This document shows positions 4,311 through 10,332 of a DNA stretch of 64,000 nucleotides, piece by piece. Location: assembly GCA_002720855.1 (NCBI GenBank), contig PBIN01000009.1, positions 153,222 to 217,221 of the forward strand. Reading direction: 5' to 3'. The position numbers and the translations under genes were made by a program. Origin of the DNA: Rhodospirillaceae bacterium. Its GTDB lineage: Bacteria > Pseudomonadota > Alphaproteobacteria > MPNO01 > UBA2964. Position 1 is the stretch's first letter, and each line of letters begins with the position of its first letter. The notes beneath the pieces are model-generated. The model did no database searches, was not told the DNA's origin, and saw nothing but the letters and a program-made list of their open reading frames with translations.

Positions 4311-5509
4311 TACGCTCCACCGGGCAGGCCGGTGTTTTTGCCATAAAGCCATTCAACACCGGCGTATGGATTGCCTTCCTTCTTACCACCCAGTAGCAGG
4401 TTGCGGAGCTCACGGGTGACGCCTTCGGCGTGATATATGTCGCCATAGAAACGAGCGGTGAGCTGCACGCGGCCGGTGCGCATGTAACGCTTGCCGGGAT
4501 AATCGGCGAAGGTCCTTTCGATGTCGCCGTCATATTCCTCGAGTAAGTCGACCAGGCAGACCGCATCCTCCATCGCCATTCCCGCACCTGCTGCGAGATA
4601 TTGCAGCATCGGGTGTGCTGCATCGCCGATCAGGGTAACCCGGCCCTTAGTCCATTCCTTCACTGGTATCCGGTCGCACAGCACCCACATTTTCCAGACA
4701 TCGATCTTGTTCAGGAGAGCCTGCACTTCGGGCCTGACATCCTTGAAATGCTCAAAGAGCTCTTTGGAGTCGCCATATTCGTCCCATCCTTCGACATATT
4801 TCTGGCTATGAAAGACGGCGACGATGTTGAACAGCTCGCCGCGCCGCAGCTTGTAGTGGACAAGGTGGTTGCGAGGCCCGGCCCATAGCACAACATCCTC
4901 CATCCAGTTTTCGAGTTCCGGGGGTACCTCATCGATTGGCAGTACTGCGCGATAGGCAATGTGGCCGGAGACGATGGGGTCGCCATCGCCGATTATGCTC
5001 TCTCGAATTTTCGACCAAAGCCCGTCAGCACCGATAAGCGAGGAGCCCTCAACCGTGTCACCGCTTTCAGTTTCAACAGAGACGCTATCGCCATTATCCG
5101 TATAGCCGGTAACACCCGAACTGGTGCGGAGGTCGATCTCCTCCATGCTCGCGCAGGCATCGTAAAGTACCTTGTGAAGATCAGCGCGATGAATAACGGC
5201 GTATGGTTTACCGAAATGTGATTCCAGCCGGCGACCAAGCTCCATGCGCAAGACCTCTTCGCCGGTAAGACTATCCATCATGATAATATGCTCAGGGAAA
5301 TGAGCGATCTCGTGCATCGCTTTGGTAACCTGCAACCTGTCAAACATGCGATGCGTATTGGGTCCCAACTGGATCCCTGCACCTATTTCCCCAAATTCAG
5401 GCGCCTGTTCCAAAACGATACTGCGGCGACCTTTTATCGCGAGCATTCTGGCGGCAGCCAATCCGCCGATACCGCCACCGGCAATTATGATGGGTTTCGC
5501 GTCGCTCAT
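4310..5509 (-). CDS. FAD-dependent aromatic monooxygenase (3-hydroxybenzoate 6-hydroxylase / salicylate hydroxylase family).
   Basis: N-terminal GGGIGG dinucleotide fold and C-terminal GDAAHPMLQYLAAGAGMAMEDA motif; 399 aa. Confidence 0.7.
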   Translation of the reverse strand: MSDAKPIIIAGGGIGGLAAARMLAIKGRRSIVLEQAPEFGEIGAGIQLGPNTHRMFDRLQVTKAMHEIAHFPEHIIMMDSLTGEEVLRMELGRRLESHFGKPYAVIHRADLHKVLYDACASMEEIDLRTSSGVTGYTDNGDSVSVETESGDTVEGSSLIGADGLWSKIRESIIGDGDPIVSGHIAYRAVLPIDEVPPELENWMEDVVLWAGPRNHLVHYKLRRGELFNIVAVFHSQKYVEGWDEYGDSKELFEHFKDVRPEVQALLNKIDVWKMWVLCDRIPVKEWTKGRVTLIGDAAHPMLQYLAAGAGMAMEDAVCLVDLLEEYDGDIERTFADYPGKRYMRTGRVQLTARFYGDIYHAEGVTRELRNLLLGGKKEGNPYAGVEWLYGKNTGLPGGA

Positions 5510-5573
5510 GCTTCTCTCTTTTGTCTCTTCTCACAGCGCTGTAGAATTCTGCCACTCAATAAGGACAGTAAAA

Positions 5574-7148
5574 ATGGCAAATAATCAAATCACCGTCGAT
5601 GACAGCCAAATACCGGCAAACATCTCCTTTTCCAAGAGTTTTAATGTCGCGGTGCCGTTTATCGACAGGCATCTAGAGGAAGGGCGTGAGAATAACATCG
5701 CAATTCAGGGTGATTTTGGCACGGTGAGCTATGCCGCTTTGGCGGAGAACGTCAATCGGTGTGGTAATGCATTGGCGGGCCTTGGGCTGTCCGGCAGCGA
5801 TCGAGTGTTGATGATGGTGAAGGATTGCCCTGAGTTCTTTTATATTTTCTGGGGCGCTATCAAGGCGGGCTTTGTGCCGGTGCCGCTCAATACGTTGCTT
5901 CGCTCAAATGACTACCAGTTCATGATCGAGGATTCCGAATGTGCGGCGGTAATTTATAGCGTTGAATTTGCAGCAGAAGTTGAAACCGCGCTGGCGGGCG
6001 CCGAACGCAAACCTGACCATGTGATGCTGACGGAGGGCGAAGAGTCGATTTCGGCCCTGATGGCGGATGCCGACACGGCGCTAGATGCTGCACCCGCGAC
6101 TGCGGAAGATGATTGCTTCTGGCTTTATTCTTCAGGTTCGACGGGGCGGCCAAAAGGCACAGTTCATGCCCATAAGGATATCCCTGTCACTTGTATTCAT
6201 TATGCGGTGGGAGTTCTCGGCATTCGTGAGGATGATGTTTGTTTTTCGGCGGCCAAGCTGTTCTTTGCGTATGGGCTCGGCAATGCCATGACGTTTCCGC
6301 TCTGGGTCGGCGCGACCGCTGTACTCTCCGGCTTGCCGCCGAGCCCAGCCATGACGTTTGAAGTGATCGAGCAAAACAAAGCTACAATTTATTACGGCGT
6401 GCCGACGCTCTATGCGGCTCAGCTGCAAGCAATGGAATCCAACATGCCCGACCTTTCTTCCGTTCGCGCGTGCGTTTCAGCGGGCGAAGCGTTGCCGGGC
6501 GACATTCTAAGGCGATGGAAGGATAAAACCGGCGACTCGATCCTTGACGGGATCGGTTCGACAGAAATTCTTCACATCTTTATTTCCAATTCGGAAGATG
6601 ACGTGAAACCAGGTGCGAGCGGACGCTTGGTGCCTGGCTATGAAGCGAAAATCGTTGGTGAGGAGAATGAAATTCTGCCGCAGGGAGAGAGCGGTGCCTT
6701 GTGGATCAAAGGTGGGTCGATTGCTAAATATTACTGGAACAATCCTGAAAAAACGGCTGCCACTATGCAGGACGAGTGGATCAATACAGGCGATACCTAT
6801 TATCAGGACGAGGACGGCTATTTCGTTTATTGCGGCCGCAATGATGACATGATGAAAGTTGGCGGCATTTGGTGTTCACCGTTTGAAATTGAAGCCAAGC
6901 TCATCGAGCATCCGGCGGTATTGGAGGCAGCAGTCGTGGCACGGGCGGACGATGACGAGCTGATCAAACCGGAAGCTTTCATTATCGTTGCCGAAGGGGC
7001 GACCGGCGGCGATGAGCTAGCCGCTGAATTGCTGGAGCATTGCAAGGACGGTCTTGCACGGTACAAATATCCGCGCTGGTTTAATTTTGTCGAAGAGCTG
7101 CCCAAGACCGCGACGGGCAAAATTCAGCGCTTCCGGCTGAGGAACTAG
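5574..7148 (+). CDS. Aromatic acid-CoA ligase (benzoate-CoA ligase family).
   Basis: The track ORF at 5322 is an N-terminal over-extension that overlaps the opposite-strand gene. The ATG at 5574 follows an AAGGA RBS. The product reads MANNQITVDD..., has YSSGSTGRPKG, and a C-terminal PKTATGKIQR. Confidence 0.7.
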   Translation: MANNQITVDDSQIPANISFSKSFNVAVPFIDRHLEEGRENNIAIQGDFGTVSYAALAENVNRCGNALAGLGLSGSDRVLMMVKDCPEFFYIFWGAIKAGFVPVPLNTLLRSNDYQFMIEDSECAAVIYSVEFAAEVETALAGAERKPDHVMLTEGEESISALMADADTALDAAPATAEDDCFWLYSSGSTGRPKGTVHAHKDIPVTCIHYAVGVLGIREDDVCFSAAKLFFAYGLGNAMTFPLWVGATAVLSGLPPSPAMTFEVIEQNKATIYYGVPTLYAAQLQAMESNMPDLSSVRACVSAGEALPGDILRRWKDKTGDSILDGIGSTEILHIFISNSEDDVKPGASGRLVPGYEAKIVGEENEILPQGESGALWIKGGSIAKYYWNNPEKTAATMQDEWINTGDTYYQDEDGYFVYCGRNDDMMKVGGIWCSPFEIEAKLIEHPAVLEAAVVARADDDELIKPEAFIIVAEGATGGDELAAELLEHCKDGLARYKYPRWFNFVEELPKTATGKIQRFRLRN

Positions 7149-7172: not shown

Positions 7173-8495
7173 ATGGTCGATCTTACAACAAAAGGACCGG
7201 TGGCCTTAAACGGGCTGACGGCATCTGAAGCCTCGGCGAAGCTAGAGGCAGGCGAAATCACCTCTGAAGCGCTGACCCGCGATTGTCTGGATCGCATTGC
7301 CGCTCGCGAGGGCGCAGTACAAGCTTGGGATTATATCGATCCGGACTATGCTCTATCTCAGGCAAAGGCGCTGGATAACGAACCCCGCCGAGGACCATTG
7401 CACGGCGTACCGGTCGGAATAAAAGACATCTTCGATACCAAGGACATGCCGACGGCCCATGGATTCGAGCCTTATCAGGGTAAGGAATTCGGTATCGACT
7501 CCGTTTGTGTGGAGCAGCTACGCGCCGCTGGCGTGGTAATCATGGGCAAGACGGTAACAACAGAATTTGCCTGTCCAAAGCCGCGCCATACGCTTAACCC
7601 GCATGATCCGACGCGGACACCTGGAGTTTCGTCCAGTGGTTCCGCGGCGGCTGTTGCGGATTTCATGATCCCTTTGGCAAACGGCACTCAAACCGGTGGC
7701 TCGGTAATTGGTCCGGCTGCCAACTGTGGTGTTTATGGCTACAAGGCGAGCCTCGATGGCATTGATCGCGGACGGTTCCGTCACTGCAAAAAATCGATCG
7801 ATACGATAGGCCTGTTTGCACGGTCAATCGCAGACCTTGTGCTGATGCGTCAGGTTCAAACCGGCACTGCACCCGGTGTCGCCGCTGCAAATCCGCGCAT
7901 CGCGTTTCTGCGGGCACCGAATTGGGAAGATGCCGAGCCGCCGATGCAGGCGGCCGTCGAACAGGTCGCTGAGATTCTGTCCGAAGCCGGTGCGTCTGTA
8001 AGTGACTTCAATCTGCCACAGGTTTTCACCGATATCATACCCGATGCCGCGGTCATCAATGCGTGGGAAGCAGCGGTTATGCTCGAAGAGGAAATTCGCG
8101 ACAATTATGACAGCTTCAACGATCACAATACCGAACGCATGGAGTGGGTAAAAACGATTGGCGAGGACGACTATCTTAATGCCGGCAAGGCGATGGACAA
8201 TGCGCGCGCTGAAATGGATTCAGTATTTGATGATTACGACCTGATCCTGTCGCCAAGCCTGCCCGGCGAAGCACCCGTCGGTCTCACTGAAGTCCGCACA
8301 GCAACCTTCGCACGGCTCTGGACACAGATGTATACGCCGTCAGTAAACTTCCCTCTATTTGAAGGCCCCGATGGATTGCCGGTCTGTTTTCAGCTGGTTG
8401 GTAAGCGCGATACCGATGATACGCACCTAGCGAATGCGCTTTGGGCGGACGAAAAGTTACGGGCAGCGCTGGGCAATATCCCGGTAAAAGTCTAA
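7173..8495 (+). CDS. Amidase (amidase-signature family).
   Basis: GVSSSGSAAAVA within a Gly/Ser-rich amidase-signature region. A GAGGGA RBS is present. Confidence 0.75.
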   Translation: MVDLTTKGPVALNGLTASEASAKLEAGEITSEALTRDCLDRIAAREGAVQAWDYIDPDYALSQAKALDNEPRRGPLHGVPVGIKDIFDTKDMPTAHGFEPYQGKEFGIDSVCVEQLRAAGVVIMGKTVTTEFACPKPRHTLNPHDPTRTPGVSSSGSAAAVADFMIPLANGTQTGGSVIGPAANCGVYGYKASLDGIDRGRFRHCKKSIDTIGLFARSIADLVLMRQVQTGTAPGVAAANPRIAFLRAPNWEDAEPPMQAAVEQVAEILSEAGASVSDFNLPQVFTDIIPDAAVINAWEAAVMLEEEIRDNYDSFNDHNTERMEWVKTIGEDDYLNAGKAMDNARAEMDSVFDDYDLILSPSLPGEAPVGLTEVRTATFARLWTQMYTPSVNFPLFEGPDGLPVCFQLVGKRDTDDTHLANALWADEKLRAALGNIPVKV

Positions 8496-9707
8496 CTATT
8501 CGAACAGCCAATAATACCCATAGGCCACAATGATGGCCGGTATCCCGCTATAAAGCGTCGCTATTAGGGCGGCTTTGGGCGCCATTGCGATTGCCGGGAA
8601 CAGGGCGTCACCGTCATTACTGATCGCGTTCCCTATTTCTGCAGAGAAGGGTACAAGGCCATTGAGATACATCGCGGCGACAACGACTTGAGGGCCGCAG
8701 CCCGGAATAAATCCAACTAAAATGGCAATCAAGGGGACGAGAGGCGCCCAGGTTTTGAACAATACCTGCAGGTCGACACCGGTGAAGTGCACGCCAAGCT
8801 CATAAATCAAATAGGCGAAGGCGACCCAGACGGTGACAAAGCAAGTGTCGCCGACGACGCGCGCAGGTGCGTCGCCCAGACGTCCTGTCCCCGCAGACGC
8901 CCAGCTCAGATTTGCATTGTCTTCGGAAATTGACTCAGGGCGGATAGGTGAGACCATGCCCCACAGCATTAACGAAACAACGGCGCCAATAAGCCCTACC
9001 CAAACAACTGTTTCAGTGCCCATGAATGTCCCAAAGATCGCTTCAGTGTCGGCCTGAAATGCAACAAATCCGCCAAAAAATAGGCCGGGCACCAGAAATA
9101 GGGTCCAGAGATACCGCCATGCCCGTGAGTCAACGCGCCGTATACAGGGGCTGCAGGTGGGTTCCGAACCATCGCCCTTGTAGCGAAGAAAATCAGTTCC
9201 ATGGATTGCATCAACGGCGTATCCCGATAGGACGCCGACAACGAAACCAATTGCGAAAATCGAAAGCCCTTCTCCAGGTGCCTGGGCCAACAGTAGAAAG
9301 GCCGCATCGCCCATTGTTGCCGTCAGAACGGAAACTACGGAACCAAAGCTAATCCCCCCGCGAATATATTGTGTGATGACCATAATGGCGCCGCCGCAAC
9401 CAGGCAGCGCACCCAAACCAGCGGCGATGGGAACCTGCCAGACATGGTGTTTCGCCAGGAGAGATGTGACGTCAATTTTGTACCAGGCTTCAAGCGAGTA
9501 AAAGATCGCCAGGGTTGCGGCAACAAAGACAGTTACCTGCAGAAACGCATCCGACAGGCTTTGCGCCATGATCTTTGCTGCATCAGTTGAAAGCGCGGCG
9601 AGCAACGCGAGTCCGAATAGCACGGCAAGCCGGATTGGACCAAAAGCGTTGGCCCACCTTGCTGTGCCTTCGAGGCTACGCCGCGCAACAATGCTAAGCG
9701 ATGTCAT
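8496..9707 (-). CDS. Polytopic inner-membrane protein with an internal duplication; candidate metal transporter.
   Basis: 403 aa, very hydrophobic. It carries two repeated units: PGCGGAIMV...GDAAF and PGCGPQVVV...GDALF. It is divergent from a DtxR/MntR regulator. Confidence 0.55.
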   Translation of the reverse strand: MTSLSIVARRSLEGTARWANAFGPIRLAVLFGLALLAALSTDAAKIMAQSLSDAFLQVTVFVAATLAIFYSLEAWYKIDVTSLLAKHHVWQVPIAAGLGALPGCGGAIMVITQYIRGGISFGSVVSVLTATMGDAAFLLLAQAPGEGLSIFAIGFVVGVLSGYAVDAIHGTDFLRYKGDGSEPTCSPCIRRVDSRAWRYLWTLFLVPGLFFGGFVAFQADTEAIFGTFMGTETVVWVGLIGAVVSLMLWGMVSPIRPESISEDNANLSWASAGTGRLGDAPARVVGDTCFVTVWVAFAYLIYELGVHFTGVDLQVLFKTWAPLVPLIAILVGFIPGCGPQVVVAAMYLNGLVPFSAEIGNAISNDGDALFPAIAMAPKAALIATLYSGIPAIIVAYGYYWLFE

Positions 9708-9769
9708 TGGAGGTTTTCCTCAGTTTTGCAGCCGCTCTTAGAGCCAAAGTGAACGGTTCTTTCCAAAAG

Positions 9770-9785
9770 TTTAGCCTTGGCTAAA
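9770..9785. promoter_or_regulatory. Palindromic operator-like site TTTAGCCttGGCTAAA in the divergent intergenic region.
   Basis: Perfect 7-2-7 inverted repeat. It is flanked by AAAATACTA direct repeats and lies between the membrane-protein gene and the MntR-like gene. Confidence 0.4.
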
Positions 9786-9843
9786 AATACTAGAAAATAC
9801 TAAAACATTGTCAAGACTCTAAACAATAACTTATGTTATTTTT

Positions 9844-10332
9844 ATGAAAAATAACGACAACACAGAGGAAGATATGAGTTCGGACCCAAAAGGGGGTGGC
9901 GCAGTTTCTGCGCACATGACACCAGACAAACAGGCGAGCCATTTTAAACGTGCCCGCGAGGCACGGGAGTCCGAGATAATCGAGGACTACGTCGAGCTTA
10001 TCGCTGATTTGATTGATGAGCATGGTGAAGCTCGTGCCGTCGATATTGGCAAACGTTTGGGCGTTACGGGCGCGACGGTCAACAAAATGATCGCACGGTT
10101 AAAAATGATGGATCTCGTCAATGCGGAACCTTATCGGTCAATATTTTTGACTGATGAAGGCCGTAAAATGGCCGAGGCATCCAGGGCCCGACACCATATT
10201 GTTGTAGCTCTCCTGAGAGCCGTCGGTGTGGATGAAGCGACGGCGTGGGCCGACGCAGAGGGGATGGAGCATTGCTGCAGTCCCGAAACCCTAGCGGCTT
10301 TTGCGGAATTCGTTAAGAAACAAGGCAGCTAG
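9844..10332 (+). CDS. mntR: DtxR/MntR-family metal-dependent transcriptional regulator.
   Basis: EDYVELIADLIDEHGEARAVDIGKRLGVTGATVNKMIARL matches the DtxR-type HTH and the metal-binding C-terminal half. The true start may be the internal Met at 9916. Confidence 0.7.
   Translation: MKNNDNTEEDMSSDPKGGGAVSAHMTPDKQASHFKRAREARESEIIEDYVELIADLIDEHGEARAVDIGKRLGVTGATVNKMIARLKMMDLVNAEPYRSIFLTDEGRKMAEASRARHHIVVALLRAVGVDEATAWADAEGMEHCCSPETLAAFAEFVKKQGS

Follow-up and report, generated by a model that had tools for sequence, protein, structure and literature searches.

Divergent genes for a metal-responsive regulator and a membrane protein raise the question of whether the one controls the other and, if so, what the membrane protein carries and in which direction. 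Such a pair is found in the 64,000-nucleotide stretch of an uncultured marine Rhodospirillaceae bacterium analysed here (contig PBIN01000009.1), which we refer to as the window. The gene mntX (8496..9707, minus strand) encodes a 403-aa polytopic membrane protein of the PF11449 (ArsP_2) / marine MntX family, and mntR (9844..10332, plus strand) encodes a 162-aa DtxR-family regulator predicted to respond to Mn(II); both are taken from the list of open reading frames (ORFs), and an AT-rich spacer of 136 nt lies between them. An earlier reading of this DNA, made without database searches (hereafter the sequence-only reading), had proposed that the membrane protein is a Mn(II) importer or exporter under the control of MntR, acting at a palindrome in the spacer, and the two ORFs and the palindrome were all recovered at the positions it had assigned to them. 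Our analysis suggests, with a probability of about 0.8, that the locus is a two-gene manganese-acquisition module in which MntR represses mntX and MntX is an importer. The transporter family, the regulator and the operator type are all already described, and none of them is new here.

The regulator was examined with profile searches and by comparison with solved structures. The 162-aa protein scores 199.4 bits against NCBIfam NF008273, the enterobacterial-type MntR equivalog, for which the cut-off is 153, and it contains the Pfam domains Fe_dep_repress and Fe_dep_repr_C. Its best relative of solved structure is Escherichia coli MntR (2H09, E = 1.3e-35). In an ungapped alignment to Bacillus subtilis MntR (1ON1), residues D48, E51, H117, E139, E142 and H143 fall on D8, E11, H77, E99, E102 and H103, which are the six Mn ligands of the B. 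subtilis protein. DtxR carries M and C where the MntR-type ligands are D and E. Judged from its sequence, the regulator is MntR, with none of the six ligand residues lost, and its previous placement in the broader DtxR/MntR family is thereby confirmed and made more specific. All 10 aligned loci share the mntR start codon.

If this regulator acts on mntX, a binding site would be expected in the spacer. The palindrome TTTAGCCttGGCTAAA lies at exactly 9770..9785 and is the sole exact copy in the window, where copies with up to three mismatches number 3 as compared with 2.2 expected from shuffles. With one site in 64 kb and three-mismatch matches at the level of chance, a regulon cannot be defined from the window. 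An equally good perfect palindrome (7-nt arms) appears in 7.5% of shuffles of the 136-nt spacer. By itself the palindrome is weak evidence, not beyond chance, and its significance comes from its conservation in related loci.

To describe this conservation, 80 loci encoding MntX relatives were fetched from species-representative genomes. An MntR homologue lies directly upstream of mntX in 32 of the 80, and the two genes are divergent in all of these loci except one (L020), in which they are co-directional. Among the 31 mntR-linked loci having enough upstream sequence, 27 carry TAGC-N4-GCTA within 260 nt upstream of mntX, versus 3 of 42 unlinked loci (Fisher's exact p = 1.3e-12, a value that overstates independence because many of the 31 loci are close relatives). 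The same motif is present in 0.23% of shuffled upstream regions and only once in the 478 kb elsewhere in the loci. The sites come from at least two well-separated clades, namely the Rhodospirillales relatives of the window and a group of single-cell genomes labelled as uncultured Alphaproteobacteria or Pelagibacteraceae. The consensus of 29 exact sites (28 related loci and the window) is the 20-bp sequence AATnTAGCCAwrGCTAnATT, whose layout is that of the enterobacterial MntR box, quoted as AACATAGCnnnnGCTATGTT (PMC1698941). In the window this box reads AGTTTAGCCTTGGCTAAAAA on the plus strand and extends over 9768..9787, with the palindrome at 9770..9785 as its core and TAGC-N4-GCTA as the invariant centre. 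The palindrome, likened by the sequence-only reading to the MntR sites of enterobacteria, thus proves to be the heart of a conserved box with that very layout, and a cognate palindromic box of the AACATAGC-N4-GCTATGTT type is present near the predicted target gene mntX.

A second, degenerate MntR box is a weak candidate at 9790..9803, within the spacer and -10 of the mntX promoter, and has the form TTAG-N6-CTAg. This element corresponds to a direct repeat, AAAATACTAG / AAAATACTAA, at 9784..9803, and TTAG-N6-CTA is found at the same position in 7 of 10 aligned loci. It may be a further site for MntR, two helical turns or so away from the main box.

The position of the box relative to the promoters bears on whether MntR would repress or activate. 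An intergenic alignment of the window with nine relatives at 70-90% protein identity (10 loci) shows only four conserved blocks: the mntR ATG, TTGACAA, a TAnnAT-like hexamer, and TTAGCCAAGGCTAA. The 7-nt TTGACAA is invariant in 10/10 loci; the hexamer follows 16-17 nt downstream of it, likewise in all ten, with TTAGCCAAGGCTAA directly after the hexamer. In the window, a sigma-70 promoter is predicted for mntX at 9787..9814 on the minus strand, with a -35 of TTGACA (9814..9809), a 16-nt spacer and a -10 of TAGTAT (9792..9787), giving 10 of 12 consensus matches. A Shine-Dalgarno sequence, GAGGA (9717..9721, minus strand), can be read 9 nt upstream of the mntX ATG. The MntR box shares its last base with the predicted mntX -10 and covers the expected start site. 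Since a promoter with 10/12 matches needs no activator, and a box at -10/+1 is in the position of a repressor site, we infer that Mn-bound MntR represses mntX.

The predicted promoter of mntR (9808..9837, plus strand; -35 TTGTCA at 9808..9813, -10 TATGTT at 9832..9837; 9 of 12 consensus matches) is packed against that of mntX, such that the two -35 hexamers overlap back-to-back (9808..9813 / 9814..9809). Between the mntR -10 and the ATG at 9844 there are 6 nt, a gap that is retained in relatives, and direct reading of the sequence upstream of 9844 found no Shine-Dalgarno sequence. From the short distance between the predicted -10 and the ATG, and from the retention of this spacing, the mntR mRNA is probably leaderless.

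The membrane protein was assigned to a family by the hidden Markov model search that the sequence-only reading had recommended. Its match to Pfam PF11449 spans positions 3 to 359 of the 359 in the profile and scores 432.6 bits, the cut-off being 32.5 (E = 1.6e-129), and the Pfam scan returned no other family, DUF204 and PF03773 included. With PF11449 as the sole Pfam match, an identity as Nramp (MntH) or SitABCD is rejected, as had been anticipated. A 100% identical protein is encoded by a marine Rhodospirillaceae metagenome-assembled genome (MAG), where it is called 'hypothetical protein' (CMM52_07315) and 'tara' is among the listed sources; several relatives at 60-86% identity carry the name 'putative manganese transporter'. 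The mntX product is 47-51% identical to homologues from Pelagibacteraceae, SAR116/Puniceispirillaceae and Photobacterium, and 43% identical (E = 1e-101) to a 'putative manganese transporter' of Vibrio owensii. Named MntX proteins share 36-63% identity among themselves (PMC13274385), and since the values of 43-51% lie within this range, the mntX product sits inside the family. It should be noted that the placement was made via PF11449 and homologues in other taxa, with the named proteins ISM_02005 and VC1688 compared by description: none of the 80 fetched loci was from Roseovarius, and a search from the Photobacterium homologue gave Vibrio species other than those of VC1688 and VP1164, for which V. 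owensii was used instead.

The name mntX was coined in 2006 for a conserved membrane-protein gene behind a Mur box that was predicted to encode a Mn2+ transporter, the cases being Roseovarius nubinhibens (ISM_02005) and Oceanicola granulosus, both members of the Rhodobacterales without MntH and SitABCD (PMC1698941). Later papers cite MntX as a Mn importer and credit Green, Todd and Johnston 2013 (ISME J 7:581) (PMC13274385; PMC3798386); the title of the latter work names Roseobacters, Vibrios, Alteromonadales, SAR11 and SAR116. MntX is not mentioned in Hogle et al. 2016. Homologues of the mntX product occur in Rhodospirillales, SAR116, Pelagibacteraceae and Vibrionaceae. Thus, of the proposal that the protein might belong to a poorly characterised family such as the MntX-like proteins of marine bacteria, the likeness to marine MntX is upheld by PF11449 and by the names of relatives, while the description as poorly characterised is not, the family having been predicted in 2006 and cited since as a Mn importer. 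Homologues are also found on plasmids: the Photobacterium damselae conjugative plasmid pPHDD1 (L001, 3878..5089) bears an mntX homologue at 42% identity without an adjacent mntR, and a search of a plasmid collection found more distant homologues on haloarchaeal megaplasmids.

The two halves of MntX repeat one another. The first half contains PGCGG (102-106) and GDAAF (133-137), and the second contains PGCGP (335-339) and GDALF (366-370), in agreement with the repeated motifs that had been pointed out before. The PGCG and GDA residues do not vary among 14 homologues with identities as low as 50%. An alignment of one half to the other covers 55 residues at 35% identity (E = 2e-8), indicating an internal duplication. 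A sequence search of the PDB with MntX found no solved structure among its relatives. In an AlphaFold2 model built from the 14-sequence alignment (mean pLDDT 73, pTM 0.74, moderate confidence), helix breaks fall exactly on the motifs, at 101-104 and 131-134 in the first half and at 334-337 and 363-365 in the second. An elevator-like fold, maybe one that is undescribed, is possible.

We propose that MntX is an inner-membrane secondary transporter, most likely an importer of Mn2+. When Mn2+ is sufficient, dimeric Mn-bound MntR would bind the 20-bp box at 9768..9787 and, positioned at the -10 and start site, would block RNA polymerase and keep mntX off. When Mn2+ is scarce, apo-MntR would leave the box and the transporter would be made. 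The duplicated PGCG and GDA motifs, placed at the helix breaks of each repeat, probably form a central cation site. In this scheme, we infer that MntR binds the box and that it represses mntX and does not activate it, and also which way transport runs and what the motifs do. Import is favoured because of the family literature, the repressor geometry at this locus, and observations in Vibrio, and we regard it as the likely direction of transport by MntX. The predicted operator geometry favours import over export, and the same logic is known from E. coli, in which Mn-bound MntR represses the importer gene mntH (PMC4361602). The sequence-only reading had left importer and exporter side by side; its claim of MntR control is supported by the conservation of the box and by its linkage to mntR, and the choice it left is now tilted by the geometry toward import.

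The observations in Vibrio concern a different regulator. The mntX of V. owensii (L082) has no adjacent mntR; upstream of it lies TATAATGAGAATCATTCCT, which agrees with the consensus of the classical Fur box at 14 of 19 positions. Expression of the V. cholerae gene VC1688, annotated as mntX, goes up in an iurV mutant, as does that of the iron-uptake genes vib, hut and tonB1 (PMC7600106). Vibrio mntX hence appears to be under Fur-type control, following an importer-style logic.

Several points weigh against MntX being a Mn2+ importer repressed by MntR. For this protein and its clade the reading rests on comparison of sequences, the mntX promoter is a consensus prediction, many of the mntR-linked loci are close relatives as stated above, and the evidence for import by the family comes through papers that cite Green et al. 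2013. Moreover, the one-line Pfam text for PF11449 is 'putative 10TM heavy-metal exporter', and VP1164, the MntX homologue of V. parahaemolyticus, rises about 12-fold with added Mn, and its authors raise the possibility of export (PMC13274385). On such grounds MntX could be a Mn2+ exporter whose gene is activated by Mn-bound MntR against Mn overload, as E. coli MntR does with mntP; Mn-bound MntR is known to induce efflux pumps besides repressing importers (PMC4361602). We consider this improbable at the present locus. The box lies at -10/+1 of a conserved promoter with 10/12 matches and not upstream, where activators sit. The Mn exporter genes mneA and terC of V. parahaemolyticus lie behind a Mn-sensing riboswitch (PMC13274385), whereas an Rfam scan of the whole window found no yybP-ykoY and no other Rfam element. 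The literature cites the tested member of the family as an importer. Finally, in the Vibrio loci no mntR adjoins mntX and control appears to be by Fur, so the response of VP1164 is not directly transferable to the window.

A further objection to Mn2+ as the substrate is that the protein also matches NCBIfam NF037962, a broad subfamily model named 'arsenic efflux protein', at 219 bits against a cut-off of 100. MntX might accordingly move an organoarsenical, or Fe2+, Zn2+ or Cd2+, the link to MntR being incidental or cross-metal. Work based on TCDB places PF11449 in the ArsP family 2.A.119 (PMC7176098), the cysteines of the invariant PGCG motifs are soft ligands, which are unusual for Mn2+, and VP1164 is also induced by Cu excess and by Zn limitation (PMC13274385). 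In our judgement another substrate is nevertheless very unlikely. PF03773, the ArsP domain named in the TCDB-based work, has no match at E <= 0.01; mntX is flanked by an amidase gene and mntR, with no adjoining ArsR-type regulator; the divergent regulator bears ligands of the MntR type (D and E, at positions where DtxR has M and C); and the mntR-mntX pair recurs together with the box in at least two distant clades. It might also be argued that the palindrome arose by chance in an AT-rich spacer, or is the site of another protein, and that mntX lies outside MntR control, as the frequency of palindromes in the shuffled spacer and the lack of a second site in the 64-kb window would allow. This is the least credible of the alternatives, given that the block is unchanged across 10 intergenic regions that have diverged elsewhere, that its core is tied to an adjacent mntR (27/31 versus 3/42), and that it has the layout of known MntR boxes (PMC1698941).

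Repression of a Mn2+ importer gene by MntR can be compared with several named systems. Like the marine MntX proteins (R. nubinhibens ISM_02005, V. cholerae VC1688, and those of SAR11 and SAR116), the window protein belongs to PF11449 over its full length, is about 400 aa long, and has the invariant motifs and the marine taxonomic range of the group. The R. nubinhibens mntX carries an MRS box of Mur, a Fur-family regulator (PMC1698941), and Vibrio mntX looks Fur-controlled, whereas the mntX of the window is linked to a divergent, adjacent mntR and carries an MntR box. The window mntX therefore has, in silico, the cis box of a Mn-responsive repressor at its predicted promoter, with a type of regulator that is unlike Mur. 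The MntR-mntH system of E. coli and Salmonella is similar in that its regulator falls in the equivalog family NF008273, its box has TAGC-N4-GCTA within a 20-bp AT-rich palindrome, and holo-MntR represses the gene of a Mn importer, as is proposed for the window. It differs in that its target is the Nramp protein MntH and not MntX; in addition, the regulator and target genes of the window, unlike those of MntR-mntH, are adjacent and divergent and share back-to-back -35 hexamers.

Two other comparisons concern names that could mislead. The MntX of Neisseria meningitidis (YebN / MntP) shares only its name and its metal with the window protein; it is a proven exporter with two DUF204 repeats and 6 transmembrane segments (TMS) (PMC3182930; PMC9936198). 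Taking two DUF204 repeats, 6 TMS and about 190 aa as the marks of a DUF204-type MntX / MntP, this identity is rejected as a homonym, as the window protein has 403 aa and no DUF204 match, with PF11449 as its only Pfam family. ArsP (TC 2.A.119, PF03773) shares a TCDB family with PF11449 (PMC7176098), and the match to NF037962 points the same way. ArsP is built, like the window protein, from two repeat units that are homologous to each other; in some members additional TMSs separate the two. The window protein is unlike ArsP in having no PF03773 match and in being accompanied by MntR and not by an adjacent ArsR-type regulator. No ars-operon context was seen among the immediately adjacent genes, which encode an amidase, MntR and then an amidohydrolase; ArsP-type arsenical efflux is rejected by the domain, the adjacent genes and the regulator.

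The analysis is of value for annotation, in that a gene for a 'hypothetical protein' in the MAG of an uncultured marine Rhodospirillaceae bacterium is assigned both a function and a regulator, and the 20-bp MntR-box consensus for marine Alphaproteobacteria could serve in searches for Mn regulons in MAGs. The results also contribute comparative evidence to the question of whether MntX imports or exports, which was raised in 2026 for V. parahaemolyticus: import is what the repressor-type geometry under MntR at this locus suggests, as does the apparent Fur box of Vibrio. We would like to emphasize that the discovery value is small, as both proteins and the operator type fall into families that have been described, and the transporter's homologues already have names in databases. 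What may be undescribed is the wiring of mntX to MntR in marine Alphaproteobacteria and the compact bidirectional promoter. More speculatively, and with considerable doubt on our part, the Rhodospirillales clade and the second clade of single-cell genomes could have wired mntX to a divergent MntR instead of Mur or Fur by means of such a promoter, with back-to-back -35s and a leaderless mntR, which would make this a case of one importer under three metalloregulators across marine lineages.

The genes around the pair provide information on its history. The amidase gene (7173..8495, plus strand; ORF list) and mntX are convergent at 8495/8496, with zero bases separating their stop codons. A scan that covered 9600..9950 only saw no terminator-like hairpin. 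By tblastn, the order ligase - amidase - mntX - mntR - amidohydrolase is retained in relatives down to about 55% amidase identity. This suggests that the cassette is a stable, vertically inherited part of the chromosome in this clade, not a recent insertion. No connection to metals is evident for the neighbouring genes, of which the immediately adjacent ones were covered by profile searches. The ligase, by our reading a putative AMP-dependent one, is a 608-aa ORF at 5322..7148 with a TTG start codon. In relatives, nothing corresponds to roughly the first 60-75 residues, the tblastn alignments starting at residue 62-76, and the true start probably lies further downstream.

Regulatory arrangements vary among the other loci. 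In the loci that lack mntR, inspection of the upstream ORFs without a Pfam scan revealed no neighbouring regulator. Seven loci (L027, L028, L037, L062, L067, L076 and L081) have TTAG-N6-CTAA palindromes upstream of mntX, for example TTAGTCTTGACTAA, at positions of about 2870-2990 in each locus and about 695 in L067. The SAR116/Puniceispirillaceae genomes and the unclassified alphaproteobacterial MAGs among them have no mntR within 3 kb, and the regulator acting at these sites may be some other protein or an MntR encoded elsewhere. In V. owensii (L082, 2888..4000), mntX is divergent from the gene of a 301-aa DHH/DHHA2 protein, DHH and DHHA2 being the domains that are paired in family II (Mn-dependent) inorganic pyrophosphatases, and TATAATGAGAATCATTCCT in the spacer between them overlaps a TATAAT. 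The co-directional locus (L020, 2445..4161) is from a Rhodothalassiaceae MAG, in which mntR precedes mntX on one strand and the two may form an operon; a TAGCCAGGGCTA core lies 97 nt ahead of the estimated start of mntX, a position that, by the tblastn coordinates, would be inside mntR or at its end.

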